A DNA stretch of 64,000 bases from an uncultured Candidatus Saccharibacteria bacterium (GCA_964598205.1 CAZRBB010000004.1:71156-135155); one strand, 5' to 3'. Numbered from the stretch's first letter, positions 10,601 to 64,000 are shown. Made by a program: numbers and translations. The notes: a model not told the origin generated them from the sequence alone.

Positions 10601-13600
10601 TTTAAAAACGCTCACCGCTTCCGATTCCACAACTCTTGCCACCAATGCGATTACTCTCGCTGGTGGGGAAGTCATAACTTTTTCACCAACTAACGCTTTG
10701 TCACTTTTGACGACTGGAGCAACAAGTGTGACTTTGCCAACATCTGGAACATTGATCAGTACCGACCAAACAGTGGGGCAAACTATTGGATTAACTGGAT
10801 CAAGATTAACAAAACTTTGGGCAACCAACATTGAATCAACCAATGCTCCGACAGTTTTAGGTTCAGCAGTTTATTATACTGGTGGTACGGATGTTTCTTT
10901 GGCTGATGGTGGTACCAACGCTTCCCTTACTGCCAATAATGGAGGAATTTTTTATTCCACGGGAACAGCTGGAGCAATTTTAGCAGGAACATCGACAGCC
11001 AATCAAATTTTGCTTTCTGGTTCATTAACAACACCAGTGTGGTCCACCGCCACCTATCCGGTTACGACGATGGCTAATCAATTATTATATTCTTCAGCGC
11101 TTAACACGGTTACTGGTCTAACTACTGCCAACAGTGGTGTTTTGGTTACCAACGCCACTGGAAATCCTTCTTTCTTGGGCTCTCTGACTAATGGACAATT
11201 AGTCGTTGGTTCTACTGGAGCCATTCCAGTTTTAGCCACTTTGACCGGTACAGATAATCAAATCGTGGTGACCAATGGCGCTGGCACAATTACTCTTTCC
11301 ACCTCTCAAAGTATTAATACCACTTCCACTCCGCAATTCGCTAGAATAGGCTTGGGGGTTTCCGCTGACACTACGAACATTCTCACTGCTACATCTGTTT
11401 CTACTACCGATCTTTCAAAGACGCTAAATATCTCTCATACTGGAGCCATCACTGGCACGGGATACGCCGGATACTTTTCCAAAACTGGAGCATCAACTAC
11501 TAATGTTGGGCTTTATACGATTGCCACTGGGGCAACTAATAACTATGCGTTGCAAATAGATTCTGCCGTAGCTGGAGCGAATAATTATACAATCTATGCT
11601 AATGGCACGGCACAAAGTTATTTTGCGGGCAACGTCGGCATCGGGACGACAGCCCCTTCTTCATTATTAAGTGTTGGCGGTGCAGGTTCCAGTTCTTATA
11701 GTATTTCTGGGATAGGTTCTCAAAGTGGAATTTATGGCTCTGCAAGTGCTGGTTATACTGGAGTGTATGGTCTTTCTACATCTGGTGCTGGTATCTCTGG
11801 CTCTTCCACGAGTGGAGTGGGTGGTTATTTTACTTCTTCTGTTGGTTACGCACTTATTACAGGAAACGGCAACGTCGGCATCGGGACGACGGCACCAGAA
11901 TCAAAACTGCATGTTTCAGCAGATGGTGCTGTTCAAATTTTCATGGGCGATCTTTATAGTGATCTATCATATAATACGCCAGAATTCTCAGGCAGGAGAG
12001 CCAGAGGAACTCAATCATTGCCATCCGCAGTATTGGCGGGTGATACGCTAATGCTTGTTGGGGCTAGAGGATATATGGATACTGGGGGGTTTAGCGCAAA
12101 TAAAGCCGTCATACACATGTATGCTGCGGAAAATTTCACTTCTACTACAAACGGAACTTATATCACTTTTTCAACAACACCTATCGGATCAACATCAAGA
12201 GCCGTAAGGATGACAATAGGGGATGCTGGCAACGTCGGCATCGGGACGACGAGTCCGGGGGCGAAGTTAAATATAAAAAGTAATAATGATGCTTCTGCTT
12301 TAAAACTTACATCATCTCTTGGTGGTACTATGATGGATCTTTACGAACTATCAGATGGAAGAATTCAATTCAATCTTTATGATGGGAGCGGAATTACCAA
12401 GGTACGATTAGATGGAAATGCAGATAATTACATAACCGGTGGCAACGTGGGAATCGGGACGACGGGACCTTCGGCCCTCTTGCATGTTGGATCCGGCGGT
12501 ACTCCCGGCTACGCAACTACGGGTGACGCTTATTTCCAAAATGATGTTGAAATTGACGGAACACTTTATACCGCAGGATTATCGGTACTTGGCAGCATTA
12601 TTCCTGCAACGGACGACACTTACGATCTTGGTTCATCGTCTTACCGCTGGAGAGATCTTTATCTTGGTCCAACATCATTACACCTAGTTTCAACGGTTGG
12701 GGAAACAACAACGGCCAGAGATTGGAAGTTGTCTATTCAGGAAACAGACGGCACAAGCGAAGGCAATTTGCGTATTATGGAAGGCGCAACGGAAATAATG
12801 AACATACAACCCGGCGGCAACGTCGGCATCGGGACGACGGGACCGGGGGCAAAACTGAATGTAGTAGGTGGTTCCGCTGGGACAAATACAGGTATTTTTA
12901 GAATCGAAAACAATACTAATGCTTCTGCTAACACAGGTGCATCAGTTGAGTTTTACAGTTACGATAACACGCCAGCTCAGGTAGAAATGGGACGAATTGG
13001 CACATTGGTAACAACTGGAACTGCCGGAGCGGCTTCATCTGATTTAGCTTTCTCGGCACGCAATAGTGGAACATTGACGGAATGGATGAGAATAAAAGGT
13101 AGCGGCAACGTCGGCATCGGGACGACGGGACCAGCGACAAAATTACAAATAGCTGGTACGGGTTCGACAAATGGACTTTCTTTTGGTGATGCGGCAGATG
13201 TGATTTTATATCGAAATTCAAGTACGCAACTTAGAATGAATAGTGATTTGCGGACAAGTGGTTCTAGCGGCTTGACTGTGGATGGGCCTGCTTTTTCTCT
13301 TGGTGGATTTAACACGCTTTATAACGCCGCAAGTGGTTTGCAATTTAAAGCGAATGCTACTTCGCAGATGCAACTATTTGCATCAGGTGGTTTAGCACTT
13401 GGTAGTACTTATTGGTCAACTGACCCAGGGGCAGGGAATTTAACAATACAAGGCAACGTCGGCATCGGGACGACGGCACCGGGGGCAGCCTTGGATGTGA
13501 TTGGAACAGGGATATTTCAATATGCGGCCTTGGAAAATGAAGGTGAATTTCTAAGAATATCGAGAACCTCTCAGACAACTCGATATAGTTCTTTATGGGC

Positions 13601-16600
13601 GAGACAGTCAGTTACAAAAGCGAATAATTATATTGGATTTAGAGTGTATGATGGTAATTCGACAGATTATGCTCCTGTAGAAATGATGAGAATAACAGGA
13701 AGTGGCAACGTCGGCATCGGGACGACGAATCCGACTGCGAAATTGGAAATAGGGGGAGATAATAATGGACTAAAAATATCTGGAGCAACATATGTTAGTG
13801 CTGAATTATTAGATGGTGGTAGCAATGATTCAGGGTACTTATCTCTTTATCGTGCTGGAGTTAAGGCTTTTTCTATTGGTGCTAATGACACATATTTCAA
13901 TTACGGCAACGTCGGCATCGGGACGACGGGACCGGCACAGAAACTGCATGTGTTCGGTGCGACGCCTCAAGTGGAAATTGACTCGTCATCTGGCACTAAC
14001 CCTTCATTGTTCTTAACAACGACAAATGACACGACTCAAGGAATAAAGTTTAGTTATGACCAAGGGGCTGGGGACGGGTATATTGATAATGTTTGGAACA
14101 ATGCTGCTGGAGATTTATTTTTTAGACTACGCACTCTCGGAACTCCAGTGGATGTCTTGTCGTTAAAAGCGAGCGGCAACGTCGGCATCGGGACGACGGC
14201 ACCGGTAAGCAAATTTCATCTATATGATAGCACGGGCTCCGGGTTAAGTATTGATACGGGAAATGGTTATGCGAATTTGTATTTCTTGGACGGTGGAGTT
14301 GAAAGATGGAGGTTTAGAAACGATGGTGCGACCGATGACTTTCACTTAATGGAAGATGCATCGGACATACGTCTTACTGTTCAAGAAGGCGGCAACGTCG
14401 GCATCGGGACGACGAGTCCACTGTCAAGTTTCTATGTAGGTAGTACTACTCCAACTAGTCTTTCCTACGCCCTTGGTAATTGGAACTCATACAAGGCAGC
14501 CATTGTAGATACATTCAATTATGCATCGGTTGATGATGAACATACTTCGTTTTTATCAGACCTGACCGTGAATTCGACCGTAAATAGTAGTGAACAGATG
14601 GCAGCGATTGCAGCATCAATAACAGTTAGTACGGCAAGTACGGCAGATACTGGGTCACTTAGGACTATATGGTCAAATTTGCAACATGATGGTACTGGAA
14701 CAGTTGCTGCCGCTCGGTTGTTTAATGGTGAGTTGGCAAATAAATCCACTGGCACAATGACTAAGGCGGATGGACTTGGTGTAGCTTTTAGAAATACAGG
14801 AGGGGGAATAATCAGTGATTTGAGAGGTGTTAACATTATTGACCTAGTAAACACTAGTGGGACAATCACTAATACATATGGGATATATACTGGCGACTTG
14901 TCATTAGGTACTCAAACGAATATGCCATTTTCTTTTTATGCCTCTGACTCTGATACATACAATTATTTTGCGGGCAACGTCGGCATCGGGACGACGGCAC
15001 CGGTAAGCAAATTTCATCTATATGATAGCACGGGCTCCGGGTTAAGTATTGATACGGGAAATGGTTATGCGAATTTGTATTTCTTGGACGGTGGAGTTGA
15101 AAGATGGAGGTTTAGAAACGATGGTGCGACCGATGACTTTCACTTAATGGAAGATGCATCGGACATACGTCTTACTGTTCAAGAAGGCGGCAACGTCGGC
15201 ATCGGGACGACTGGGCCATTGGTAAAGTTGCATATAACTACTGATGATGTTAATGGTAATGGCATACGAATTCAAAATGATAATGCTCTTGGCACTTGGA
15301 AATATGGAACGCTCGCTATGATGGGGCAAACTGGAAACAGCATTGTTGATTGGCCAAATGCTTTAGTAATTGAAGGTGCTGGCAATGGGGGAACTGTTAT
15401 TAGTAGTGCAGCAGGGGATATTAAATTTAATCCTGGTAGAATACAAGGAATGATAGTAAAGCAAACAACAGGCAACGTCGGCATTGGGACGACCGCGCCG
15501 GGATTTAGATTAGATGTTCCAGCGGTTTCTGCTAGCAACTATGATGTTGCAAAAATAGGCGGATTTGTAATTGCAAGAGCAGGGACTGATGTTAGTAATT
15601 TACTTATAACTGGTGCAAGTTGGGCTGGTGGAAGTACATTAACAGCTACCGCAACTACTTATGCCAGTTATCAACAAACTAGCGGAAATCATTATTTTTA
15701 TACTGCTACGGGACAAACCGTGGGAAATGCAGTTACTACTGTTATTCCAATGACAATAGTGGGTAATGGAGCAGTGGCCAATACTTTGTATCTAACTGCG
15801 GGCAACGTCGGCATCGGGACGACGAGTCCGACTCAAGCATTACAAATTACAGGAAGTCAATTTCAACAGCTGTCTTTACAAACAACTGGTGCTTATACAA
15901 CAAAAACTTACTTTGCGAATTATGCTGCAATAGGGAACTTGAACTCGTATTGGTCTATGAATAGAAATATTGGGACTGGTGTATTTGATAATATTGAACT
16001 GCCAGCGGCGGCAATCGCAATGAATGGCTCTACGGGAAATTCATCTATTCAATTTTATACTGCAGCCGCAAATAACACCGCACCATCTGTGCGTATGACA
16101 ATCGACAATAGTGGCAACGTCGGCATCGGGACGACGAGTCCGGGTGATAAGTTGAGTGTAGATGGCACAACTTATGGCACAACTATATCTGTCACAGGTA
16201 GAAGTGCATCATGGCCTGGCAATGCGACGGATTTGTCAAAACTTAATTTTAATGGATTAGTAGGTGCTTCTGGTGGAACACTGGCTTCTATAGCAACGAG
16301 GTTTGGGAATTCTGGTTCTGATTTTAGTAGCCAACTTCTTTTTTCAACAACTGACGCTTCCTTTGTTTTACAGGAAAGGATGAGAATCAATAACCTCGGC
16401 AACGTCGGCATCGGGACGACAGCACCGGGGGCATTATTGCACGTCGGACCAAACTCAGTTGTGTACCAACCAACCGTTGGAACTAAACAGCTAATTCTCT
16501 CTGGTGCTGGAAATACAAACGCAATTGATAATGGGACAATGATGATTTTTAGTGGTGGGTATAATTCAACGCTTGCACAAAATGCGACTTATGGTGCAAT

Positions 16601-18164
16601 TGCTGGTTTAAAAGAAAATGGGACCGACAATATTGCGTCTGGTTATTTAGGGTTTTACACCGGTCGTACTGGAGATGCCAATGCCTTGGAAAAAATGAGA
16701 ATTACAAGCACTGGCAACGTCGGCATCGGGACGACGGGACCGGTAGAGGCTTTGGATGTTTTGGGAAAAATAAAAGCAAGCAGTTCGGTTCAAGCAAATG
16801 GCGTAGCAATAGGTGGATTAAACGGCCTTTATTATAGTTCTTCCACAAGGGGTAAATATGGTTTTGGTTCTGTGACAGCGCTAGGAGCTTATCCACTCGA
16901 TTTATCTTCTGGTGATGTTACGACGTATACTGATGGATATATCAAATTCAGTACCGCCGGAACAGAAGCGATGCGAATTCAATCAAGTGGCAACGTCGGC
17001 ATCGGGACGACGGGACCAGGTGGTAGACTTCATATCGCAGATGGAATTACGGGCAATGACGCGACATATCGGGGAAAGTTAATTATTGAGAGCGGGCAAA
17101 CAGATAATGCCAGTAATGGATTGGAATTTAAAGCCAGCGCAGGGGCGAGCGGGTATGGTTATCGTTTGGCAACCGTTTATCCTACTTCTGGCATTGACCT
17201 TCGTTTTCAATCCAGACAAAATTCAGCTACTTGGTCTGATGTAATGACAATAAATACAGTCGGCAACGTCGGCATCGGGACGACGAATCCGGGGTATAAG
17301 TTGCAAGTTAGACCGGCTACTGATGTCAATCTTGGTTTTGGAAGTAATGCTGTTGGTGGTTTGCTAAATGTGGCTAATGATGCCGCATCAGTTGTTGATT
17401 TGACAACTAATGCGTGGGAATATCACTTTCAATCAAATGGAAACGAAAGGGTTACAATTCTCAACGGCGGCAACGTCGGCATCGGGACGACGGGGCCGGG
17501 GGCACGGTTAAATGTAGTTGATGTAAATTATGGATTTAATAATGTTGGAAATCTATTTATTCGCACTTCTGACGCACAGGCGGCAGACATTGGTGGAATG
17601 ATTGGACTGGGAGGTATTGGAAATGACGCAGGAACGGGAATTACTTCCTTTGCGACAATAGCAGGAAGAAAAGAAAATGGAACAACTTCAAATTACAGTG
17701 GATATTTGCAATTCTCAACATCTAATCCAGGAAGTACAAAGAATGAATGGATGCGAATCACAAGCACCGGCAACGTCGGCATCGGGACGACGGCACCCTC
17801 CCAAAAACTTCATGTTGAAGGTCACTGTCTTACCGGCGACACCCTAATCGCTGTTCGTCGTAAAAAAAGACGAAATTCTGAAAACGGAGAAAATGAAATT
17901 GACCCAGATGACCTAGACTTTTCTTTATCCGATTTTGCGTCTTCTAGCGATCAAGAAACAGAAGACTGTATCCTAGTACCAATTTGCAACATTCTCCCCG
18001 GAGACGAGGTTTTATCGCTCAATGAGGAGACAAATCGCACCGAGTATCACCCCATAAATGGCCTCCTAGACATGGGCATTCAAGAAATTTATCAAATTCG
18101 CACTAAGTCTGGACGGGTAATTCGGACTACCGGAAATCATCCGTATCTGGTAAAAATGAACTGA
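7608..18164 (+). CDS. Giant (3518 aa) tail-fibre-like repeat surface protein = N-extein fused to the N-terminal half of an intein
   Basis: N-terminal signal/TM anchor. Tail-fibre-type motifs (ILPLANGGTN...). About 23 modules each starting GNVGIGTT(A/S/G/N)P..KL.V. Last 112 aa are Hint N-terminal blocks A (CLTGDTLI) and B (TGNHPYL). Confidence 0.85.
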   Translation: MTVRKQKKGGINGFQPLGVWGLFIVLGISLVMVFGGNSVWGAAEGTEGTEITEGTVWGRFWSGVDQGVTSFKEGFLATTNNLKSYLGTSGQFIARFGKEKNEKEAEELASVIASQKMEKWLEWFSKNGERLEEIANGENFNNLYLSGAIDGQNIANRSLNGNLKIIPGSITGLVIANGSVSKEDILWRGITSVNLHANAVTTRIIKDGTIIGADLSDDLSFSTTGTIHADNINGNHLIVKDGSTLSGDTVFNGGAFSHMGTTFLVNETGDATFDSDAVTTFSGSRLELVADGGGVTITYPDGQTFQLKDRTTRIETLANGSLILGNDSDATTVDGSVINLSGNTVINGTITGNITDNASNAFDLQEGTNKYLNISTVDGSEKIDFGNTTLNPSYEFLGTGATTLGGNLTVNGALIVGGGTAVAGHFLPGSNNVYNLGSNTYRWANLYLGGETLHLGASITDEAVVSYDTTINILNIGTDATTNGDIAFFSDDLYLDKSSGNVGIGTTDPGAKLDVAGVATFRGNLLFSTDNTLDIGANGATRPRTGYFGTSVVAPNFTGLASSATILATARDLYGFSFNGSVGTVSGINIIASSYGGTGNGFTKFTGPTTAEKTFTLPDANAIIARTDAGQTFTGVNIFTSPTFTTSIVPTINDGTTIGTTTLQFSDLFLASGATINYANGDTTLTHSTGILTLGTGTLKITTPTNTATSVATIDGMQTLTNKTLTASNNTLGGVTMTLGTDATGDIYYRNVSGYLTRLGIGTSNQILHGGTTPSYSAISLTGDITGILPLANGGTNKNITASSGAIIFSDTDSMELTLVGSSGQILVSQGAGTPIWSTPTYPSASGSAGKIIRSNGANNIYSTAAFADTYTASNLLYSNGDNTVQGLATANNGVLITGVTGVPSISSTIPVVTQQNITNVNSALVTGLLQITTTTGALTSVTTSAGIDALISNNTGSGLLVFNDGPTFIAPTLGVATATSINGLTINTTTGTLAISNLKTLTASDSTTLATNAITLAGGEVITFSPTNALSLLTTGATSVTLPTSGTLISTDQTVGQTIGLTGSRLTKLWATNIESTNAPTVLGSAVYYTGGTDVSLADGGTNASLTANNGGIFYSTGTAGAILAGTSTANQILLSGSLTTPVWSTATYPVTTMANQLLYSSALNTVTGLTTANSGVLVTNATGNPSFLGSLTNGQLVVGSTGAIPVLATLTGTDNQIVVTNGAGTITLSTSQSINTTSTPQFARIGLGVSADTTNILTATSVSTTDLSKTLNISHTGAITGTGYAGYFSKTGASTTNVGLYTIATGATNNYALQIDSAVAGANNYTIYANGTAQSYFAGNVGIGTTAPSSLLSVGGAGSSSYSISGIGSQSGIYGSASAGYTGVYGLSTSGAGISGSSTSGVGGYFTSSVGYALITGNGNVGIGTTAPESKLHVSADGAVQIFMGDLYSDLSYNTPEFSGRRARGTQSLPSAVLAGDTLMLVGARGYMDTGGFSANKAVIHMYAAENFTSTTNGTYITFSTTPIGSTSRAVRMTIGDAGNVGIGTTSPGAKLNIKSNNDASALKLTSSLGGTMMDLYELSDGRIQFNLYDGSGITKVRLDGNADNYITGGNVGIGTTGPSALLHVGSGGTPGYATTGDAYFQNDVEIDGTLYTAGLSVLGSIIPATDDTYDLGSSSYRWRDLYLGPTSLHLVSTVGETTTARDWKLSIQETDGTSEGNLRIMEGATEIMNIQPGGNVGIGTTGPGAKLNVVGGSAGTNTGIFRIENNTNASANTGASVEFYSYDNTPAQVEMGRIGTLVTTGTAGAASSDLAFSARNSGTLTEWMRIKGSGNVGIGTTGPATKLQIAGTGSTNGLSFGDAADVILYRNSSTQLRMNSDLRTSGSSGLTVDGPAFSLGGFNTLYNAASGLQFKANATSQMQLFASGGLALGSTYWSTDPGAGNLTIQGNVGIGTTAPGAALDVIGTGIFQYAALENEGEFLRISRTSQTTRYSSLWARQSVTKANNYIGFRVYDGNSTDYAPVEMMRITGSGNVGIGTTNPTAKLEIGGDNNGLKISGATYVSAELLDGGSNDSGYLSLYRAGVKAFSIGANDTYFNYGNVGIGTTGPAQKLHVFGATPQVEIDSSSGTNPSLFLTTTNDTTQGIKFSYDQGAGDGYIDNVWNNAAGDLFFRLRTLGTPVDVLSLKASGNVGIGTTAPVSKFHLYDSTGSGLSIDTGNGYANLYFLDGGVERWRFRNDGATDDFHLMEDASDIRLTVQEGGNVGIGTTSPLSSFYVGSTTPTSLSYALGNWNSYKAAIVDTFNYASVDDEHTSFLSDLTVNSTVNSSEQMAAIAASITVSTASTADTGSLRTIWSNLQHDGTGTVAAARLFNGELANKSTGTMTKADGLGVAFRNTGGGIISDLRGVNIIDLVNTSGTITNTYGIYTGDLSLGTQTNMPFSFYASDSDTYNYFAGNVGIGTTAPVSKFHLYDSTGSGLSIDTGNGYANLYFLDGGVERWRFRNDGATDDFHLMEDASDIRLTVQEGGNVGIGTTGPLVKLHITTDDVNGNGIRIQNDNALGTWKYGTLAMMGQTGNSIVDWPNALVIEGAGNGGTVISSAAGDIKFNPGRIQGMIVKQTTGNVGIGTTAPGFRLDVPAVSASNYDVAKIGGFVIARAGTDVSNLLITGASWAGGSTLTATATTYASYQQTSGNHYFYTATGQTVGNAVTTVIPMTIVGNGAVANTLYLTAGNVGIGTTSPTQALQITGSQFQQLSLQTTGAYTTKTYFANYAAIGNLNSYWSMNRNIGTGVFDNIELPAAAIAMNGSTGNSSIQFYTAAANNTAPSVRMTIDNSGNVGIGTTSPGDKLSVDGTTYGTTISVTGRSASWPGNATDLSKLNFNGLVGASGGTLASIATRFGNSGSDFSSQLLFSTTDASFVLQERMRINNLGNVGIGTTAPGALLHVGPNSVVYQPTVGTKQLILSGAGNTNAIDNGTMMIFSGGYNSTLAQNATYGAIAGLKENGTDNIASGYLGFYTGRTGDANALEKMRITSTGNVGIGTTGPVEALDVLGKIKASSSVQANGVAIGGLNGLYYSSSTRGKYGFGSVTALGAYPLDLSSGDVTTYTDGYIKFSTAGTEAMRIQSSGNVGIGTTGPGGRLHIADGITGNDATYRGKLIIESGQTDNASNGLEFKASAGASGYGYRLATVYPTSGIDLRFQSRQNSATWSDVMTINTVGNVGIGTTNPGYKLQVRPATDVNLGFGSNAVGGLLNVANDAASVVDLTTNAWEYHFQSNGNERVTILNGGNVGIGTTGPGARLNVVDVNYGFNNVGNLFIRTSDAQAADIGGMIGLGGIGNDAGTGITSFATIAGRKENGTTSNYSGYLQFSTSNPGSTKNEWMRITSTGNVGIGTTAPSQKLHVEGHCLTGDTLIAVRRKKRRNSENGENEIDPDDLDFSLSDFASSSDQETEDCILVPICNILPGDEVLSLNEETNRTEYHPINGLLDMGIQEIYQIRTKSGRVIRTTGNHPYLVKMN
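17826..18161 (+). other. Split-intein N-terminal fragment (IntN, about 112 aa) at the C-terminus of the giant protein
   Basis: Cys1 in CLTGDTLIAV (block A). TGNHPYLV (block B, conserved T..H). Followed directly by a stop codon. No intein C-terminal blocks in this ORF. Confidence 0.8.
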
Positions 18165-18193: not shown

Positions 18194-19753
18194 ATGTTTG
18201 GCGGTGGATTTTTGAAAAATTTTAGGGGCACTTGTATCACGCTTGCCAAACGAGTAGTCGATTTATTTCAAAGTCGTGATACCGAACCCTTGCCGATTCG
18301 TGATACGAAACCAGTCCTTAAAAAAATACGGAAAACCAAAAATTCCCAAAATTCGGTCAAAATTTTAGCCAAAGAAAAAATTCCCATGGGCGTGGAAATT
18401 TTAGAACCGGAACCTAGGCCCAATCTTTTGGAAATTTTTTGTCCGTATTGCTCTGGCAAAAATTTTGTAAAACGCGGTTTACGGCAAAAGAAAAAAGAAA
18501 AAGTTCAACTTTATCTTTGCCGTGATTGTCGGCGGTCGTTTACTCCCGGAGCGGTGAAAGGTCGGCATTATCCAATGGAGGTGATTCTTAACGCCATTAG
18601 TTTATATAACCTGGGGTACAGTTTGGAAAAGGCGGGAAAGATGGCATCTAAAATAGAGGGATTCAATAGGGAAGGAAAAAAAGAGCAGGGGGCGGGACTC
18701 AAAGGGACAAGGTTCCAGAGGGGACTGCTTACAACATCGGGCAACTTCGGGAGCGGGATGATCGGCAGCGGGACGGTGCTAAGTTGGGTGAACCGCTACC
18801 GTCATCTCTGTGCTTTTTCCCGAATGCGGGAATTTGCCATAAAAATGCTACCGCCGAATGAAATGATTTCTTCGGCTACCCTAGCGCATCGGCAACTCTA
18901 CCGATTCCGGCACCATCGTGCCAAAACAATCTTGATTATTAAAGAAGATTTTAAGAACAGTCCCTTTTGGCCATTAAAAGAATTTTTGGATTTAGTGCCG
19001 GTGGAATGTCCACATCAATATTTTCAAGAAGGTTTGCGGGCGTCAGAAGCGCCGCTTACTTTTTCCAAAACGGAAATGATTGTGCGGGGCAAAAATAATT
19101 TTGCCAACAAAATGGCTAAGTTTGCGCTAGAATCGGCCACTAAAGCCAAAGATCGCCACGATGTTTTACAGCGATTTATGTTGGCCAACGATTCGGTAAC
19201 AGTAGCTACAGAAGTGCCGATTTATCTTCGTCGGGAAGATTTAGCACACATGCAAACACAGTTGGGGTTTGAGCTGTATAAAAAGAGGATTCGTTCTAGA
19301 AAGAAGGAAGACAAGGCCCAAGGGGGGGCGAGGCCCAAGGGGGACTACTTACAACATCGGGCAACTTCGGGAGCGGGAAGATCGGGCAGCGGGACGGCAT
19401 TGGAACTTTTTCCCCTAGAAGAAATACCCAAATTAATTACCGGTCACATTGATTTTGTGCAGATTAGAAACGGAATGATCCATATTTTGGATTACAAGCC
19501 AAAAGCCGCCAAAGAAAGACCGATTGAACAATTAACCATTTACGCGTTGGCGCTTTCCCGCTTAACTGGCTTACGGGTGTATCATTTTAAGTGCGCTTGG
19601 TTCGACGAAAAAGATTATTTTGAATTTTTCCCACTGCATGTGGTTTCCAAGCCGGGAAAGAGGCGTTATCGGCGGAAAATTCGGACGATTGAAGGGACTT
19701 ATAAATTAAACGACGATCCGTTAAAGGTGGCGAATATTAAGGCTCAAGGCTAA
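18194..19753 (+). CDS. Putative free-standing homing-type nuclease: N-terminal C4 zinc ribbon (IS1/IS1595-transposase-like) plus C-terminal PD-(D/E)xK RecB/Cas4-family nuclease motifs
   Basis: CPYCSGKNF...x17...CRDCRRSF zinc ribbon. C-terminal GHIDFV (motif II), ILDYKPK (D/ExK), QLTIYALAL (QxxxY). Lies between the two intein halves. Contains out-of-frame 56-bp direct repeats and a G7 tract, so the ORF may be composite or decaying. Confidence 0.5.
   Translation: MFGGGFLKNFRGTCITLAKRVVDLFQSRDTEPLPIRDTKPVLKKIRKTKNSQNSVKILAKEKIPMGVEILEPEPRPNLLEIFCPYCSGKNFVKRGLRQKKKEKVQLYLCRDCRRSFTPGAVKGRHYPMEVILNAISLYNLGYSLEKAGKMASKIEGFNREGKKEQGAGLKGTRFQRGLLTTSGNFGSGMIGSGTVLSWVNRYRHLCAFSRMREFAIKMLPPNEMISSATLAHRQLYRFRHHRAKTILIIKEDFKNSPFWPLKEFLDLVPVECPHQYFQEGLRASEAPLTFSKTEMIVRGKNNFANKMAKFALESATKAKDRHDVLQRFMLANDSVTVATEVPIYLRREDLAHMQTQLGFELYKKRIRSRKKEDKAQGGARPKGDYLQHRATSGAGRSGSGTALELFPLEEIPKLITGHIDFVQIRNGMIHILDYKPKAAKERPIEQLTIYALALSRLTGLRVYHFKCAWFDEKDYFEFFPLHVVSKPGKRRYRRKIRTIEGTYKLNDDPLKVANIKAQG
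18721..18776. repeat. 56-bp direct repeat, copy 1 (inside the nuclease ORF)
   Basis: gggactgcttacaacatcgggcaacttcgggagcgggatgatcggcagcgggacgg. Near-identical copy at 19341-19397. The two copies are read in different frames, so the repeat is at DNA level. Confidence 0.8.
19341..19397. repeat. 56-bp direct repeat, copy 2 (one extra G), preceded by a G7 homopolymer at 19322-19328
   Basis: gggactacttacaacatcgggcaacttcgggagcgggaagatcgggcagcgggacgg. Confidence 0.8.
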
Positions 19754-20317: not shown

Positions 20318-20767
20318 ATGTATCGCAATTATGTAAAAAGAGCGGTTAAGAATTTTACCGATTTAGATGTTTACCAAAAGCTTTTGGAAGGAAGTGTTTT
20401 TGTGGCAAAAGTGGTGGTGCCGGCTTTTTGGGAAAAACAAACGGAGACAAAAAAAGACAAAACGGCGGAGCTGATTATAGAAAAGCTAACAGTGCATACT
20501 CTTTATCTTCCAGAGCTGATTGCCAAGGCTCATTCTGTTCGTTTTGGAGCGGGGGAGCAATGTTTGGCATTTTTAGAAGAAGCAATGCTTGGCTGTAATT
20601 TAGCGGTGGTCTATTTGGAACAAACGCGGGATATTTGCGAAACTGGGTTAGAAACCGAACAATTTTCCGAACAGATTAAAAAATATTTTCAGGTAAGACA
20701 AAAAGTGTTAAACTTGCAAAGAGTTTGGAAGAAATTTATAGAAATCAAAAAACAAGAACAAAACTAA
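20318..20767 (+). CDS. Four-helix-bundle protein (TIGR02436 / 23S-rRNA-IVS-protein-like; Avd-like fold)
   Basis: 149 aa, all-helical. N-terminal FTDLDVYQK...resembles the F.DL.VWQKA signature of this family. Stop lies 4 nt before the IntC gene start. Confidence 0.4.
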   Translation: MYRNYVKRAVKNFTDLDVYQKLLEGSVFVAKVVVPAFWEKQTETKKDKTAELIIEKLTVHTLYLPELIAKAHSVRFGAGEQCLAFLEEAMLGCNLAVVYLEQTRDICETGLETEQFSEQIKKYFQVRQKVLNLQRVWKKFIEIKKQEQN

Positions 20768-20771
20768 AATT

Positions 20772-21059
20772 ATGTTTGGTTTTTTAAAGAAAGTTGCTAA
20801 AAAATGGCTCAAGGTTTCCCAGTTAAAAGTGGGAGCAAAAATTGCTGTGCCCAGAGCAGCGGCAATGGCTGGTTATGGTGGACTGGTTGCTAATGATTCC
20901 TTACTAGAAGAAGGCGAAGGGGATTATATGTGGGACGAAATTACCGAAATTAAAAAAGTTGGTCGAGAAAGAGTTTACGACATTGAAGTAGACGGAACGC
21001 ATAATTTTATTGCGGGGAATATTAATAATAAATTATTCGGCGGAATTTTTGCTCACAAC
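20772..21059 (+). other. IntC (C-terminal intein half; 96 aa from the first ATG, 44 aa if translation starts at 20928)
   Basis: Terminal His-Asn (AHN) followed by +1 Thr. Block F VYDIEVDGTHNFIA. Confidence 0.75.
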
Positions 21060-22670
21060 ACCTATGTCACCGGCAACGTCGGCATCGGGACGACGACACC
21101 GACCTACCGTCTTCAACTCCCCAATGTAGGCGATGCTACCGGGCAGGGCCAAGCCAATGCTTGGGTAGCATATTCAGATAGAAGTTTAAAAGAAGAGGTT
21201 GATCCAATCACTAATGCTCTAAACAATGTTCTTCTCTTACAAGGAGTAGACTTTACTTGGAAGGGTCAAGGAATTAGAAGCTCTGGCTTTATTGCTCAAG
21301 ATGTAGAAGAGGTTATTCCTAGTCTAGTATCCACAGACATTAACGGAATTAAGTCTTTAGACTATGGAAGATTTACTCCTTACCTAGTAGAAGCAATCAA
21401 AACCCAACAACTAAACATTACTACTAACACGAGCCGTCTTGATCTCCTAGATCAAAAGATAATGGAAGAGGCGAGTGGTTCTTTAATCCTTAATGCTACT
21501 GGCAATAGTATCCAAGCCAAAGATCTCTTAGACGCTACCTTACAAGGTGTAGCTACTAAAGTTAAATCCGGCACTATTTCCGACACTGACTTTATTTTAC
21601 CGATCAATGGTTTAATGGCAGTAGACTCAGCTAATGGAAGGGTCTATTTCCGTTACGACAATGATTGGCATTATGTTAATCAAACAGGAGGCTTTCAGAT
21701 TCCTAATTACGAAACCGCTCCGTACGAAAAGCTATCTCAAAACTCTAAGATTAAAGAAAATGAAGCTCTTCCTTTTGAATCAAGTAACTATCCTCACTAC
21801 ATAACAGAAAAGTTAACTCCCGGAGAGCTTCTGATTCCTTTTGTAGATGAATACCTTCCAGACGGAGCTGTCCATGGTCTGTATGCTAGATTCGAAGATG
21901 TTAAAGAAAAAATGTTTACTCAAGAAAAGAGCCAGTTAGTAGATCTAGCCCTTAAAACCGCAGAGAACATAGAAACTATTAAAGAGTTTAAAGAATCAGT
22001 AGATAAAAACCTAGCCGTAATTTCTTCTAACTTTGAATCATTAGATAACAACATTGACCGAAACGAAAAGAATGTTGAAAGCTTAGAAACCAGAACAGAA
22101 GCTACAGAAGCTAAAAATAATGATCTATCTTCCCGAGTTTCTGTCTTAGAGTTTTCTCTTTCTGAATCCCAACTAGCCGGAGAGCGCTTAGAGTTCCTTA
22201 CCCAAATCTTAAACCCAGCTGAAGACGGAAGCCTGACTATTTACAATGATCTGAATTTAGAAGGCAGATTGAGCGCCGAGGAAGTGGTGCTTAACAAGAT
22301 CACTATTAAGACCGATTCCGAAGAAACCCGCACGGTAGGGCAGGCGGTGATTGTTGGATTAGCTAAAGATGAAGATGCTGATGGCAAAGACGACAACACC
22401 GGAGCCGATGGTAAGAGCGTGATTATAAAAACCAGAATGGTTACGGAAAGTTCCAAGATTTTTTTAACCTTTGAAAACAATCCTCAATCATTGTATTGGG
22501 CAGAAAAAGTAACCAATGAATCTGGTGCTCTTATTGGTTTTAAGATTCTTCTAAACAGTCCGGCGTCGGCGGATATTAAAGTTTCTTGGTGGATTCTAGA
22601 AGAAGACGATCCGGCCAAGCAAACAACAAGCACTCCGGTCATTCCTTCTTCCCAATCAGAAGCACTTTAA
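20772..22670 (+). CDS. Split-intein C-terminal fragment (IntC) fused to C-extein: final GNVGIGTT repeat, peptidase-S74 intramolecular chaperone domain, coiled coil and C-terminal beta domain
   Basis: Blocks F/G: ERVYDIEVDGTHNFIAGN ... GIFAHN | T. The C-extein starts TYVTGNVGIGTTTP using the same 23-mer as the giant gene. SDRSLKEEV...GFIAQDVEEVIPSLV...LDYGRFTPYLVEAIKTQQ matches the S74 (CIMCD) consensus. Internal starts at M32 and M53 (20928) would give an IntC of 44 aa. Confidence 0.8.
   Translation: MFGFLKKVAKKWLKVSQLKVGAKIAVPRAAAMAGYGGLVANDSLLEEGEGDYMWDEITEIKKVGRERVYDIEVDGTHNFIAGNINNKLFGGIFAHNTYVTGNVGIGTTTPTYRLQLPNVGDATGQGQANAWVAYSDRSLKEEVDPITNALNNVLLLQGVDFTWKGQGIRSSGFIAQDVEEVIPSLVSTDINGIKSLDYGRFTPYLVEAIKTQQLNITTNTSRLDLLDQKIMEEASGSLILNATGNSIQAKDLLDATLQGVATKVKSGTISDTDFILPINGLMAVDSANGRVYFRYDNDWHYVNQTGGFQIPNYETAPYEKLSQNSKIKENEALPFESSNYPHYITEKLTPGELLIPFVDEYLPDGAVHGLYARFEDVKEKMFTQEKSQLVDLALKTAENIETIKEFKESVDKNLAVISSNFESLDNNIDRNEKNVESLETRTEATEAKNNDLSSRVSVLEFSLSESQLAGERLEFLTQILNPAEDGSLTIYNDLNLEGRLSAEEVVLNKITIKTDSEETRTVGQAVIVGLAKDEDADGKDDNTGADGKSVIIKTRMVTESSKIFLTFENNPQSLYWAEKVTNESGALIGFKILLNSPASADIKVSWWILEEDDPAKQTTSTPVIPSSQSEAL
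21174..21420 (+). other. Peptidase S74 / C-terminal intramolecular chaperone autoproteolytic domain
   Basis: YSDRSLKEEVDPITNALNNVLLLQGVDFTWK...SGFIAQDVEEVIPSLVSTDINGIKSLDYGRFTPYLVEAIKTQQLN. The Ser-Lys dyad motif SD(R/K)xLK is conserved. Confidence 0.8.
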
Positions 22671-57253: not shown

Positions 57254-57961
57254 GTGAAGAACATGAATCAATCAATAACGGCTAATAGATTAAGTTTTGG
57301 TGGATCTTTTTTGGGTCGGCTGGTGGCCAGGCGTCCTTTGTTCCAAAAGAAGAGAAAGTTACTTTTAATTTTGATTTTTTGTTTTGTGCTGGGTTCTTTT
57401 TTAGCGGCTTACGCTTATTTTTCTTTTAATAATCGGCAAGAGGGGAACAAAATTAAAATGGCTAATTTAAGCTTGGGACTGGCCGGAGAAAATGGTTCAG
57501 AAATTTTACCGCTAGATTTAAATAATATTTTTCCCGGATGGAATTACGACATGAAGGGAGAAGTTACCAATCAGGGCGGAGAAAATTTGATTTTTAGAAT
57601 TCAATTAGAAGAAACCAACAATCAATTTTCGGCTATTGCTAAAACTACGCTCTATACCTTAGAGGTGAAGGATCAGGCAGAAAATATTGTTTACACCAAA
57701 AGTGGGTATTTAGAAAATTTGAACCAAGAAAATCAAGCAATGAATGTTGCCATAGAAGAATCAGGCAAGAAAAAATACTCCTTGCGTCTAAGTATTCCCC
57801 AAGATATGGACGATTTTACTACGCCAGAAAACGAAGAAGACAATCAATACCAAGGAATGACTTCGGAATTTGATTTGGCGATTCAATCAACACAGGCAGC
57901 CAACAGCAATTGGGAAGGGTTCCCCGAAAAAGAAGTTCTAGGTCCTCCTGCTCAAAGTTAA
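57254..57961 (+). CDS. Secreted/anchored TasA/camelysin-like (M73-like) protein
   Basis: N-terminal anchor. NLSLGLAGENGSEILPLDLNNIFPGWNYDMKGEVTNQG resembles the TasA/CalY N-terminal pattern. Strong SD aaaggaggtga. Confidence 0.35.
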   Translation: MKNMNQSITANRLSFGGSFLGRLVARRPLFQKKRKLLLILIFCFVLGSFLAAYAYFSFNNRQEGNKIKMANLSLGLAGENGSEILPLDLNNIFPGWNYDMKGEVTNQGGENLIFRIQLEETNNQFSAIAKTTLYTLEVKDQAENIVYTKSGYLENLNQENQAMNVAIEESGKKKYSLRLSIPQDMDDFTTPENEEDNQYQGMTSEFDLAIQSTQAANSNWEGFPEKEVLGPPAQS

Positions 57962-58024: not shown

Positions 58025-59311
58025 ATGTTGTTTAAATCATTGAAAATATTTTTGACTATTTTTTTCGTGATATTATTTTCCTTTTTTTCTGAGTCATCGG
58101 TTAAGGCCTTTTTTTCTTATAGGCAAATTTTAGGAGGAAACAAGGTTAGCTTAGGTGATTGGGAGGCTCCGCAATTATCTTTTGTTGAATTGCCAAATGA
58201 AAGCAAGGCGAGTCTATATTTGCGGTTTAAGTTGAAATCTTGGGACAATCAATCATCTATTGGAGGGATTGAATTTACGCTTTATTCAGGAGAAAAGGGG
58301 AGTACTGATTCTGATTGGGTAAAAACTTTTCGGTCAACCGATTGTGATTCCGGGACTTGTTCTAAAAAAGAAGAATTTTTTTCCTTGGATCTTGATTTGG
58401 ATTTTATAGACAATCCTAATCATCGACTTTGTTTAGTGGATACTGCTTGGTGTACTGGTAAACCTTTGCCACTGGGAAATTATTATTTAGAAATCAAAAC
58501 CTTCGATCAAAGCTCTACTGTGAATCTTTTAGGGAATATGAGTGATCCTTTGTTTTTTTCTGTAGAAAAGACAGCACCAAAGGTGGTTTGTCTTTCTTCT
58601 GGTTTTTATCTAAGGGTGGCGGCAGGGGAGCCGGTTAGTTTTCCTAGTGTTAGTTGCGAAGGGGAAGCACCGCTAGTAGAAATCCGCTGGGATCTAGACG
58701 CTCAAAATGGAGTTAGTTGGGAGCATCCGGATTTTTATGGAGAAATGCCAATTTGGCAAGAAGGCTATCTTGTTCCGGGGAGCTATCAGGCTTCTGTTTG
58801 GGGAAAAAATAATGCTGGAGAAATTGAGATAAAAATTTTTGAGGTAGATGTTTCTAATCCCCTACTGGCTTACCAGTCCCTCCTAATCAATGAGTTTTTA
58901 CCTAATCCGGTAGGAGATGATAATGCGCCTCTTCCTTTGGGAGAATGGGTGGAAATTTTTAATCCAGGAAGATCAGCGGTAGATCTTTTGGGATTTGTTA
59001 TTTACGATGCTTACAATGCGCACGAATTGCCGATCAGTGCTGCAAATATTGAAGGTGGAGAAACAATAATTTATCCCCAAGGATATAAAGTAATTTATCG
59101 TGCCGGTTCCCCGATTTTTTCCTTGAACAATCAAGGACCAGAAAAGGTTCGTCTCTTTGCGGGATTTATAGAAAATTCTGCGCCATTATTAGATCAAGTC
59201 AGCTATGATTCTTCTTTTTTGGAAGAAATTTCTTATTCGCGTTTTCCAGACGGGGCTATTAATTTTTTAATGACTAGTAGTCCTACTAAGGGAACAGCAA
59301 ACCAACAATAG
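58025..59311 (+). CDS. Secreted protein with a C-terminal lamin-tail domain (LTD)
   Basis: Signal peptide. LLINEFLPNPVGDDNAPLPLGEWVEIFNPGRSAVDLLGFVIYD matches the LTD signature. Confidence 0.6.
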   Translation: MLFKSLKIFLTIFFVILFSFFSESSVKAFFSYRQILGGNKVSLGDWEAPQLSFVELPNESKASLYLRFKLKSWDNQSSIGGIEFTLYSGEKGSTDSDWVKTFRSTDCDSGTCSKKEEFFSLDLDLDFIDNPNHRLCLVDTAWCTGKPLPLGNYYLEIKTFDQSSTVNLLGNMSDPLFFSVEKTAPKVVCLSSGFYLRVAAGEPVSFPSVSCEGEAPLVEIRWDLDAQNGVSWEHPDFYGEMPIWQEGYLVPGSYQASVWGKNNAGEIEIKIFEVDVSNPLLAYQSLLINEFLPNPVGDDNAPLPLGEWVEIFNPGRSAVDLLGFVIYDAYNAHELPISAANIEGGETIIYPQGYKVIYRAGSPIFSLNNQGPEKVRLFAGFIENSAPLLDQVSYDSSFLEEISYSRFPDGAINFLMTSSPTKGTANQQ

Positions 59312-59593: not shown

Positions 59594-60355
59594 CTAAAAA
59601 GAAGAAACCCTTTGGCTGTAGATTTTTAAGTGTTCCAGCTGTTGGGGGGTGAGTTTCTTAGCAGCATCTAGTGCTTCTTTCATATTGTCTGCCGAAAAAC
59701 TCTTTACTTCTCCTGCATTTAAGTGGCGGTTATAGCCCATTTTTTTAGCCAGGTAATCTTCCATGTAAACCCGATGTTCGTTGGTGATTTCCGAATCTTG
59801 ATTGGTTTCTATGTATTGCTTAACTGCAGAACGAGATATAGTCGTTAGACTGTCTCCTTTTCCTGCGGTAACTTCGTAGCCATCTTGATTTTGGGAAACA
59901 ACGGTTTCGGAATTTTTTTCTGTTTCAGCTGCCGCTGGTTCTGGCTCTGGTTCTTCTTTCTTCTCTTGAGTAACTGCTTGTTCTTCGGTTTTCTTTACGG
60001 CTTCTTCCTGGGCTATTTTTTTGGCGTCGTCGATTACTCCAGCCTTATCTTCTGGCTGAGCCTGTTCCTCATTTGTAACCAAGTCTTCTAGCTTTGCTTG
60101 GTCGGTATTTTCCTCTTGATTTTCCTTGAGTCCTTTCTTGGAATAAGAGTAGACAGACACGCCAATAATTAGGACCATAACAATGGATAAAACGATGCGA
60201 ATATTGTCTTGAATCCAATTCTTAGTTTCCGAAAGCCAATCTCCCATTGGTTCGGGAGTATTGCTTTCTTCTTCCATTTTTTTGCACCTCCCTTCCTTTG
60301 TTTCGTTAAGTTCGTTTTTTAAAAAAAACGTTCGACCGCGAGGCAATCGTAACAA
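59594..60355 (-). CDS. Membrane-anchored E/K-rich protein with a C-terminal LysM-like domain
   Basis: TM near the N-terminus. Acidic coiled region. C-terminal YEVTAGKGDSLTTISRS (LysM-like). Confidence 0.4.
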   Translation of the reverse strand: MLRLPRGRTFFLKNELNETKEGRCKKMEEESNTPEPMGDWLSETKNWIQDNIRIVLSIVMVLIIGVSVYSYSKKGLKENQEENTDQAKLEDLVTNEEQAQPEDKAGVIDDAKKIAQEEAVKKTEEQAVTQEKKEEPEPEPAAAETEKNSETVVSQNQDGYEVTAGKGDSLTTISRSAVKQYIETNQDSEITNEHRVYMEDYLAKKMGYNRHLNAGEVKSFSADNMKEALDAAKKLTPQQLEHLKIYSQRVSSF

Positions 60356-62383: not shown

Positions 62384-62395
62384 AAGCCTGATTGT

Positions 62396-62683
62396 TTAGG
62401 CTTTTGATTTTAGAGCGCTTTTAATTTCTGCTGGAGATTGAGATTTTTCGGGAGAAGCGGTTTTTGTGGTTTGTTTTAAACCTTCTGATTTCTTGAATCG
62501 TTTTAAGAAGCGATCTACGCGACCGGTGGCGTCTACAATTTTCTTTTTCCCAGTGTAGAAAGGATGACAACCACTGCAAATATCTACTTTTATTTCCGGA
62601 GTAGTAGCTTGAGTTTCTACAACATTACCACAAGCACAACGAATAACTGCTTGACCGTAAGAAGGATGAATATTCTTTTTCAT
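62396..62683 (-). CDS. rpmE: 50S ribosomal protein L31 (Zn-binding type) with a C-terminal extension
   Basis: [20 protein letters not shown]...[11 protein letters not shown]. Confidence 0.85.
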
Positions 62684-62780
62684 GTTAAATAAATAATTAA
62701 AAACACGGAGAAACCGTTTATTGAAAGTAAATTCTCATATTTAGGACCGTTAGTCAATGAAGAAATTCAGAAATCTATTT

Positions 62781-64000
62781 CTAGAATCCTAATGCCTTTT
62801 TAAAATCATCCTCTATTTTTTTTCTAAGCAGTGCCTTCATTCTTTCAATGGCTGGCTTGTTTTGATTTTTGGGATCGTTAGGATTTATTGGAGCGTTCGG
62901 ATCAGTACCTCTTTCTGCCCGACAACTGGCGTTAGTACCGCTATTAGCTCCTATGCAGTTCCAGGAAACAGAACTGTCTTTGGAGGGAAAAATAGGATTA
63001 GTGGGATCAGCAGTGCCGGCGGAACAGAAAGAATAACTACCCCAAGAAGTTTCTGTGTAGGCAAAGATTCTATTGGCGGTACCACACTGACCATTTACTT
63101 TAGCGGTACCAGGATCGGCATCTCTCTTGGCTTGGCAACTATCATTACTACCACCACTGGTTCCTTTACAAGTCCAGCTAGTGGTCTTGCCTTGATTAGG
63201 GAAGACGGGATTGAGAGGATCGGCGGTACCAGCAGAACAGAACGAATAATTCCCCCAGATAGTTTCGGTGTAGGCAAAGGTACGGTCAGCGGTACCGCAT
63301 TTGCCATTTATTTTAGTGGTATTTGGATCAGCATCTTTTTCTGCCTGACAACTGGCATTACTACCACCACTAATTCCCTTGCAAGTCCATTTTGTTTTAC
63401 TGCCAGTAGCGGGGAAAATTGGACTGGTGGGATCGGCGGTACCAGCAGAACAGAACGAATAACTACCCCAACTAGTTTCGGTGTAGGCAAAGGTACGGTC
63501 AGCGGTACCGCATTTGCCATTTATTTTAGTGGTATTTGGATCAGCATCTCTTTCTGCTTTGCAACTATCATTATTACCACCATTACTTCCCTTGCAAGTC
63601 CAGGTAATTTCTCCGCTGGGAGGGGGAAAGGCAGGACTGGTGGGATCGGCGGTACCAGCAGAACAGAACGAATAATTCCCCCAGGTGGTTTCATTGTAGT
63701 CAAAAGAACGGTCGGCGGTACCACAATGGCCATTTATTTTAGGAGTGTTTGGATCAGTACCTCTCTCTGCTTGACAACTATCATTGCTACCACCATTAGA
63801 TCCCTTACAAGTCCAGGAGGTTTTACTGCCAGTAGCGGGGAAAATTGGACTGGTGGGATCGGCGGTACCAGCAGAACAGAACGAATAACTACCCCAACTA
63901 GTTTCGGTGTAGGCAAAGGTACGATTAGCCGTGCCACACTGACCATTTACTTTAGTGGTACCAGGATCGGCGTCTCTCTTGGCTTGGCAACTAGCATTAC
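62781..64000 (-). CDS. Partial (5' end beyond the window) Cys-rich tandem-repeat secreted protein; at least 5 modules of 71 aa with 4 Cys each
   Basis: Hand translation of the minus strand in the frame lacking stops: ...ADRTFAYTETSWGSYSFCSAGTADPTSPIFPATGSKTKWTCKGISGGSNASCQAEKDADPNTTKINGKCGT... repeated. C-terminal tail KPAIERMKALLRKKIEDDFKKALGF, stop at 62781-62783. Not in the ORF track because its start lies outside the window. Confidence 0.7.
   Translation of the reverse strand, partial: NASCQAKRDADPGTTKVNGQCGTANRTFAYTETSWGSYSFCSAGTADPTSPIFPATGSKTSWTCKGSNGGSNDSCQAERGTDPNTPKINGHCGTADRSFDYNETTWGNYSFCSAGTADPTSPAFPPPSGEITWTCKGSNGGNNDSCKAERDADPNTTKINGKCGTADRTFAYTETSWGSYSFCSAGTADPTSPIFPATGSKTKWTCKGISGGSNASCQAEKDADPNTTKINGKCGTADRTFAYTETIWGNYSFCSAGTADPLNPVFPNQGKTTSWTCKGTSGGSNDSCQAKRDADPGTAKVNGQCGTANRIFAYTETSWGSYSFCSAGTADPTNPIFPSKDSSVSWNCIGANSGTNASCRAERGTDPNAPINPNDPKNQNKPAIERMKALLRKKIEDDFKKALGF
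62880..64000. repeat. Tandem 213-bp DNA repeats (period of the Cys-rich protein modules)
   Basis: Four spurious 70-aa ORFs with exact 213-nt spacing in the ORF track (63095, 63308, 63521, 63734). Units are roughly 85-90% identical. Confidence 0.85.

Follow-up and report, generated by a model that had tools for sequence, protein, structure and literature searches.

A contig edge cuts a gene for a probable exported protein of tandem four-cysteine modules in a candidate phyla radiation bacterium

Introduction

Modular pilins, which display a functional module joined to a pilin, have been described for Streptococcus sanguinis PilB and PilC, and the design is established and widespread, with examples from the candidate phyla radiation (CPR) of bacteria (PMC8179133). 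The type IV pili of CPR bacteria are thought to mediate host contact (bioRxiv 10.1101/335083). Here we describe a gene at the end of a 64,000-nucleotide (nt) stretch of DNA (GCA_964598205.1, CAZRBB010000004.1:71156-135155), called the window below and numbered from its first letter, whose minus strand encodes tandem modules of 70-71 amino acids (aa) with four cysteines each. An earlier reading made from the DNA alone (the sequence-only reading) had drawn attention to this gene. We conclude, with a probability of roughly 60%, that the window ends inside a real CPR gene for an exported multi-module surface protein of a stalk- or adhesin-like kind.

The window protein stands closest to an uncurated four-cysteine family of CPR bacteria and DPANN archaea (P0001, P0004, P0005, P0008 and P0026), whose modules follow one another head to tail with the consensus xNGxCGxAN...CSAGTA...FP..G....W.C.G.NGG....C.A.R. 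It differs from the rest of that family in that its copies are a long variant of 70-71 aa with an insert, its best relative is only 44% identical, and its predicted helical tail is without a counterpart in the database. The likeness to modular pilins lies in the nearest relatives of the window protein, which combine a prepilin leader, a small pilin module and grafted non-pilin modules that the filaments are presumed to display. Unlike these pilin-type relatives, the window protein has no extra C-terminal domain, and its N-terminus lies beyond the window; unlike in the described modular pilins, the grafted module is not a vWA, a lectin or another module with a database signature. The array also resembles the immunoglobulin-like (Ig-like), PKD, Big and Rib stalks of adhesins and surface-layer (S-layer) proteins, being predicted to consist of small all-β modules that run head to tail and are exported. 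However, it gives no sequence match to those repeats, the module is shorter (55-71 aa) and it carries four near-invariant cysteines. A cysteine set conserved to this degree is usually absent from the classical Ig-like repeats of bacteria.

Results

The frame that reaches the window edge is a coding frame

Translation of the minus strand from 63998 to 62784 gave 405 sense codons followed by a TAG at 62783-62781, which bears out the sequence-only reading of a stop-free frame running from the window edge to 62781; the two remaining minus-strand frames of the same region contain many stops. At the local base composition, the chance of 405 codons without a stop is about 3.5e-10. Summed over ten module pairs, the differences in the proposed frame fall at codon positions 1, 2 and 3 in 121, 133 and 251 cases, and the codon differences between modules comprise 147 synonymous and 207 non-synonymous changes. 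A search of the fragment against the protein database revealed 56 homologues, the top one, P0001, having an E-value of 6e-88 and matching 89% of the fragment at 44% identity. Because of the third-position excess among the module differences and the homologues with E-values down to 6e-88, the proposed minus-strand frame is the real coding frame. Independent assemblies encode the identical protein in the same open reading frame (ORF). The features of the gene are as follows.

62781-63998, minus strand: 3' part of a protein-coding gene (stop-free translation, homologues, codon-position differences); the 5' part lies past the window end
62985-64000, no strand assigned: tandem DNA repeat with a 213-nt period, 4.8 copies, score 1132 (Tandem Repeats Finder)
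63951-63998, minus strand: C-terminal 16 aa of an upstream module, NASCQAKRDADPGTTK (translation)
63738-63950, minus strand: module M1, 71 aa, four cysteines (translation, module comparison)
63525-63737, minus strand: module M2, 71 aa, four cysteines (translation, module comparison)
63312-63524, minus strand: module M3, 71 aa, four cysteines (translation, module comparison; modelled singly)
63099-63311, minus strand: module M4, 71 aa, four cysteines (translation; part of a two-module model)
62889-63098, minus strand: module M5, 70 aa, four cysteines (translation; part of a two-module model)
62784-62888, minus strand: C-terminal tail, 35 aa, INPNDPKNQNKPAIERMKALLRKKIEDDFKKALGF (translation)

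The protein thus consists of at least six head-to-tail copies of a 70-71-aa module, five complete and one partial. The 213-nt tandem repeat, for which Tandem Repeats Finder also reports a super-period of 426 nt (score 1386), is the DNA image of this array. The modules are 59-85% identical to one another in protein and 64-87% in DNA, with M5 the most divergent copy (59-77% identity to the other modules). Hence the five or more 71-aa modules of the sequence-only reading are present, M5 having 70 aa, while its description of them as near-identical was somewhat overstated; the four cysteines that it had assigned to each module occur in all five complete copies. The modules are a long variant with the insert FAYTETSWGSYSF, and the linker between them is acidic/basic, AE[KR]DADPNTTK.

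Extension of the contig, which had been proposed as a way to find the start and the module count, added 31 aa at most among the contigs listed: on contig L001 of another assembly the partial upstream module is lengthened by 31 aa to CSAGTANPTSPIFPTAGSETKWTCQGSSGGSNDSCQAKRDADPGTAK. The start was not reached and the count stays at six or more. At the contig ends, L001:3-150 and window positions 63850-64000 differ at several residues (NDS/NAS, GTAK/GTTK, TAD/TAN and TETT/TETS), and further downstream the two assemblies are identical. These differences are either strain variation or mixed reads of repeat copies at the contig ends, and the outermost ~100 nt of the window should be read with caution owing to this disagreement between assemblies.

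Past the array there is only a short linker and one predicted α-helix. The tail begins with an Asn/Pro-rich linker, INPNDPKNQNK, followed by the basic helix PAIERMKALLRKKIEDDFKKALGF, predicted at about 62790-62873. Its net charge is +4, its hydrophobic moment (muH) 0.34 and its mean hydrophobicity -0.18; of the basic amphipathic tail proposed earlier, the basic character and a predicted helix stand, and the amphipathicity is only moderate. In a search with the tail alone no database protein shared three 5-residue words with it, and no full-length orthologue could therefore be reached by that route.

The modules belong to a large family that no curated signature covers

Modules were cut from the homologues with a hidden Markov model, and 79 of them were aligned as profile A1; a narrower alignment is called A3. 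Across the 79 modules C25, C48, C59, G6, G28, W46 and G54 are invariant, and C5, G3, G50 and A61 are near-invariant. The cysteines at positions 5, 25, 48 and 59 are present in 5/5 window modules, which by A1 and A3 also keep the NG.CG start, G28, FP, W46-x-C, G50 and GG54; M5 has SG at 53-54 and so retains G54. All four cysteines are intact in 1166/1171 distinct modules of the family. The module profile search proposed in the sequence-only reading was run with A1 against 1.84 billion representative proteins and matched 5,261 of them at E<=1e-3, 2,249 at E<=1e-10 and 582 at E<=1e-30. The number of modules per protein has a median of 8 in 194 members, and some of the matched proteins hold 29-44 matched stretches.

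Searches of curated resources gave sub-threshold noise. The best Pfam match of the fragment was Lamp2-like_luminal at 21.8 bits (cut-off 27.2), and its NCBIfam scan yielded nothing above cut-off (mutacin at E 0.52, chance level). None of the 79 single modules matched a curated family below E 0.005, the module-only relatives P0004, P0005, P0020 and P0026 had zero NCBIfam matches, and in six full-length relatives scanned with Pfam and NCBIfam no curated family covered the module region. When the fragment and the module profile were run against PDB sequences, the matches were all below threshold (2luw, E 0.21); fold searches gave no significant match, and a literature search for a description of this four-cysteine module found none. 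A match to a known domain, which would have made the module less novel, was thus absent from Pfam, NCBIfam and the PDB sequences.

By these sequence comparisons the module family is very large and without a curated signature. The window fragment shows significant similarity to it (the 56 matches above) together with its head-to-tail layout, and the window protein is a new, divergent, truncated member of a large uncurated family, not a new system. That the module was not recognised in the sequence-only reading agrees with the lack of a curated match, but with 5,261 representative proteins the family is common, and its novelty is lower than that reading implied.

Predicted structure of the module and the tail

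The structure prediction proposed for one module was carried out with AlphaFold2 on M3 and gave an all-β model with a mean predicted local distance difference test (pLDDT) score of 91. In the model, residues 4-5 and 11-12 form short strands, residues 25-31 a small hairpin and residues 43-63 a long one. The module is thus predicted with high confidence to fold into a small all-β domain. A construct of M4, M5 and the tail was predicted with a pLDDT of 94 and a predicted template modelling (pTM) score of 0.57, a value that would be expected for a multi-domain chain with uncertain relative placement of its domains. In this construct the tail helix is predicted at residues 147-174, with pLDDT means of 73, 84, 96 and 94 for successive 10-residue blocks over 141-176.

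Among the 1,171 family modules, only P0109_296-362 and P0175_377-443 are without two cysteines. In both of them C5 and C59 are missing together, and C25 and C48 remain; the two modules are mutually related, so this probably was a single event. The joint loss gives a weak hint of a disulfide pairing of 1-4 / 2-3.

The relatives carry Sec-like, bacterial prepilin or archaeal leaders

The prepilin-type N-terminal domain PF07963 occurs in 7/10 best homologues. These pilin-type proteins open with K/R-G/A-FTLIE, after which come a hydrophobic helix, a ~140-aa pilin head and 2-6 modules; they close with a Cys-rich, 'GCY'-ending or a Gly-rich domain. TIGR02532 scored above cut-off in P0001 and P0008, and pilin-type relatives show a partial GspG-like match below the TIGR01710 cut-off. 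Other relatives begin differently: P0004-P0006 have a Sec-like hydrophobic segment at the start, and P0014, P0024, P0026, P0027 and P0119 an archaeal class III-like leader (RGQGAFEYLL...). By NCBI naming P0024 comes from a Micrarchaeia archaeon and P0011 from a Pacearchaeota archaeon. Of 194 module proteins, 18 begin with a bacterial prepilin motif, 5 with an archaeal class III motif and 105 with a hydrophobic segment; the other 66 either have no recognisable leader or do not start with Met.

Since the arrays of the relatives sit behind Sec-like, bacterial prepilin or archaeal class III leaders, an extracellular location of the module array is well supported by sequence. The extracellular structural or adhesive role suggested earlier fits these data, in that most complete relatives start in a Sec-like manner or with a type IV pilin leader and the cysteines are conserved to the extent given above.

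The classes also differ in what follows the array. After the last module the 18 bacterial pilin-type relatives have a median of 198 aa, and 0/18 end within 45 aa, whereas 51/171 relatives without a recognisable pilin leader do so; the latter carry 1-29 modules each, the pilin-type relatives 1-7. With 35 aa after M5, the window protein has no sizeable domain past the array; such a domain goes along with the pilin-type subgroup but does not define pilins. Some relatives (P0069, P0101, P0153 and P0118) end in clear membrane anchors or in helical tails. The strict long module variant (FCSAGT...) was found in 8 GTDB genomes, 8/8 of them Patescibacteria, and 3/8 of the proteins are pilin-type.

The 'GCY' Cys-rich C-terminal domain of P0001, which has a bacterial leader, is homologous to that of P0026, which has an archaeal leader (pairwise E 1e-6). 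The module array together with the GCY domain, motif LVN[DN]VH...CP.GWT.Y, occurs with bacterial leaders in P0001-P0003 and P0007 and with the archaeal leader in P0026 (see also L016:8001-9743). The presence of one module array and GCY domain behind both leader types suggests cross-domain transfer of the whole pilin cargo.

Organism, neighbourhood and further features of the window

The window has a G+C content of 39%, and the repeat region 47%. The closest named relatives of its PrfA are Patescibacteria group and Ca. Moranbacteria proteins with 61-65% identity, which argues for a CPR bacterium without a close sequenced relative; from such comparisons the organism is placed near the Moranbacteria/Paceibacteria lineages within the Patescibacteria (CPR). 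The repeat gene lies upstream of rpmE (L31), prfA and prmC, all on the same strand, and may be co-transcribed with them. Between 62300 and 63000, which includes the 97-nt spacer to rpmE (62684-62780), there is no promoter-like site, and the sole terminator-like site (62384-62403, plus strand) is at chance rate and outside the spacer.

The window also contains a ribosomal protein operon, housekeeping genes and several further putative surface proteins. Its 64 kb contain neither type IV pilus genes nor a thiol-disulfide oxidoreductase. The genes of the pilin-type homologues P0001 and P0008, like the window gene, sit among housekeeping genes, and for this reason the gene context says nothing on a link to pili.

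Four ORFs of the ORF track fall inside the repeat gene.

63095-63307, minus strand: artefactual 70-aa ORF, in another frame than the gene
63308-63520, minus strand: artefactual 70-aa ORF, in another frame than the gene
63521-63733, minus strand: artefactual 70-aa ORF, in another frame than the gene
63734-63946, minus strand: artefactual 70-aa ORF, in another frame than the gene

They are in phase, spaced by 213 nt, and arise where a TAA is directly followed by an ATG once in each module of the artefact frame; they are present as listed and, as had been claimed, are artefacts. The list omits the true ORF because ORFs that extend past the end of the source go unreported there. This is a practical pitfall: ORF lists drop ORFs that cross window or contig ends, and in-phase artefact ORFs take their place.

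Other putative envelope proteins adjoin the gene: a 235-aa protein that carries a membrane segment at its N-terminus and matches no Pfam family (57254-57961, plus strand), a 428-aa protein with a lamin-tail domain (LTD; 58025-59311, plus strand) and an acidic 253-aa protein with one membrane segment and no Pfam match (59594-60355, minus strand). Elsewhere in the window, a 3,518-aa ORF (7608-18164, plus strand) has as its sole Pfam match the N-terminal part of an intein splicing domain at its extreme C-terminus (aa 3457-3516), and a second ORF (20772-22670, plus strand) starts with the C-terminal part of such a domain (aa 31-83) and continues with a Peptidase_S74 chaperone domain. Between them lie a PD-(D/E)XK nuclease-like ORF and a 149-aa ORF (18194-19753 and 20318-20767, both plus strand). 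From these matches the halves look like a split or disrupted intein that would link a giant surface protein to an S74-type tail. Finally, an RND-type AcrB/AcrD/AcrF transporter (E 4e-184; 1579-4992, minus strand) adjoins an HlyD-family membrane-fusion protein (4989-6089, minus strand). An RND pump with a membrane-fusion partner is usually tied to diderm tripartite efflux, and the pair is notable here as the genome is placed in the Patescibacteria.

Discussion

The modules of this family nearly always lie behind export signals and their cysteines are near-invariant, which makes a chain of disulfide-stabilised extracellular β-modules the most economical reading of the window gene. On this explanation the array would be exported and the four cysteines of each module oxidised to two intradomain disulfides outside the cell. 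The modules would then form an extended, protease-resistant stalk, tens of nanometres long, that reaches out from the cell surface or from a filament and presents a binding element to a host cell or substrate, much as arrays of Ig-like, Rib or PKD repeats do in other surface proteins. An MdbA-like disulfide oxidoreductase that works outside the cytoplasm is typical of CPR genomes (bioRxiv 10.1101/335083). The terminal helix may serve for docking or oligomerisation at the distal end, which is our best guess, or it may anchor the protein weakly to a surface. As to the export route, the architecture of the relatives tips the balance somewhat towards a Sec-type signal peptide or an N-terminal membrane anchor, at a little over even odds, with about a third of the weight on a type IV prepilin leader and around a tenth on other routes. 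With its 35-aa tail and at least six modules, the window protein fits the non-pilin class better than the pilin-type relatives with their median of 198 aa past the array.

Several observations weigh against this explanation. The closest relative by sequence, P0001, is pilin-type, and the frequency of PF07963 among the best homologues pulls against the Sec-type guess. The two disulfides per module are plausible and are something we infer from conserved cysteines, and the stalk or adhesin function would rest on analogy. Whatever export signal and enzymatic or binding head domain the protein may have would lie in the unassembled 5' part, on which the module total also depends. The identical L31 protein was found on ten contigs, and 4/4 contigs listed stop inside the repeat gene, the longest adding 31 aa; assemblies usually break in this way where repeats are long and similar. 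A pattern of 26 nt taken exactly from the repeat had 0 matches in the metagenome contig collection, and peptide patterns of the fragment gave 115 pattern matches in the GTDB genome collection, none of them a relative. As neither scan contained a copy of the gene, the organism is not in these collections.

The strongest alternative, possible though in our view doubtful, is that the protein is itself a modular type IV pilin with a prepilin leader and a GspG-like head, placed in the pilus probably at its tip, with the array and helix as displayed adhesive cargo for the host cell. The best homologues point this way through their prepilin domain, their G/A-FTLIE start with hydrophobic helix and ~140-aa pilin head, their TIGR02532 matches above cut-off and the partial GspG-like match, as do the 3/8 pilin-type GTDB loci with the closest module variant; modular pilins are also a known design in CPR bacteria, and type IV pili play a central part in the attachment of CPR cells to their hosts (bioRxiv 10.1101/335083). 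However, 18/18 bacterial pilin-type relatives have a further Cys-rich 'GCY' or Gly-rich C-terminal domain where the window protein has its short tail, and they carry at most 7 modules, whereas the window gene already has at least six in an array too long or too similar to assemble. The N-terminus of the window protein lies past the window end, and pilus genes are not in the window, although the pilin-type relatives likewise sit among housekeeping genes.

Quite unlikely, by comparison, is C-terminal anchoring, in which the amphipathic, basic helix would rest against the membrane or be bound to the wall or S-layer and the N-terminal part would be the distal functional end. The C-terminal helix of Escherichia coli PBP5 is placed in this manner on the outer face of the membrane. 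The window tail is basic and predicted to form a single helix with a hydrophobic seam of I, M, L, L, I, F and L, and some relatives have the anchors or helical tails named above, but its hydrophobic moment and mean hydrophobicity are weak for a surface-seeking helix, and as the tail has no detectable homologue, conservation does not speak for anchoring.

The toxin-like protein that the sequence-only reading had also considered, a secreted toxin or bacteriocin-like disulfide-rich effector, was not borne out and is highly improbable. It has the general precedent of small disulfide-rich modules in toxins and the chance-level mutacin match, but Pfam and NCBIfam show no toxin, enzyme or pore-forming domain in the fragment or linked to the module, and it is structural surface proteins that typically have 5-29 modules of the same fold in a row after a pilin leader or a signal peptide; with its support absent from both fragment and relatives, we rejected this reading. 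Least probable of all is a non-functional locus, either a non-coding 213-nt repeat or a decaying pseudogene with an accidental open frame, which we rejected since, although the gene is incomplete in each contig listed, the open-frame odds, the codon-position and synonymous pattern, the conserved family residues kept in 5/5 modules and the identical ORF in independent assemblies all contradict it.

Taken by itself, the window gene encodes a truncated hypothetical surface protein of a kind ordinary for CPR genomes. Its main value is as a pointer to a module of 55-71 aa with four cysteines that is predicted to fold confidently, occurs in >5,000 representative proteins and has no solved relative. 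This module recurs on type IV pilin leaders of the bacterial and of the archaeal type. Because modules and the 'GCY' domain stand behind bacterial prepilin and archaeal class III leaders, the module might even be a dedicated host-attachment element common to CPR bacteria and DPANN archaea, the two radiations of ultra-small episymbionts, and displayed on type IV filaments in both, a proposal that we consider unlikely, if of some consequence. If true, the window protein would be a pilus- or surface-borne form of unusual length, its unique helix would be a ligand-contacting or oligomerising tip, and the family would offer a handle on host recognition by CPR and DPANN cells. Curation of the module as a domain family would annotate thousands of 'hypothetical' CPR and DPANN surface proteins and mark candidates for host attachment.
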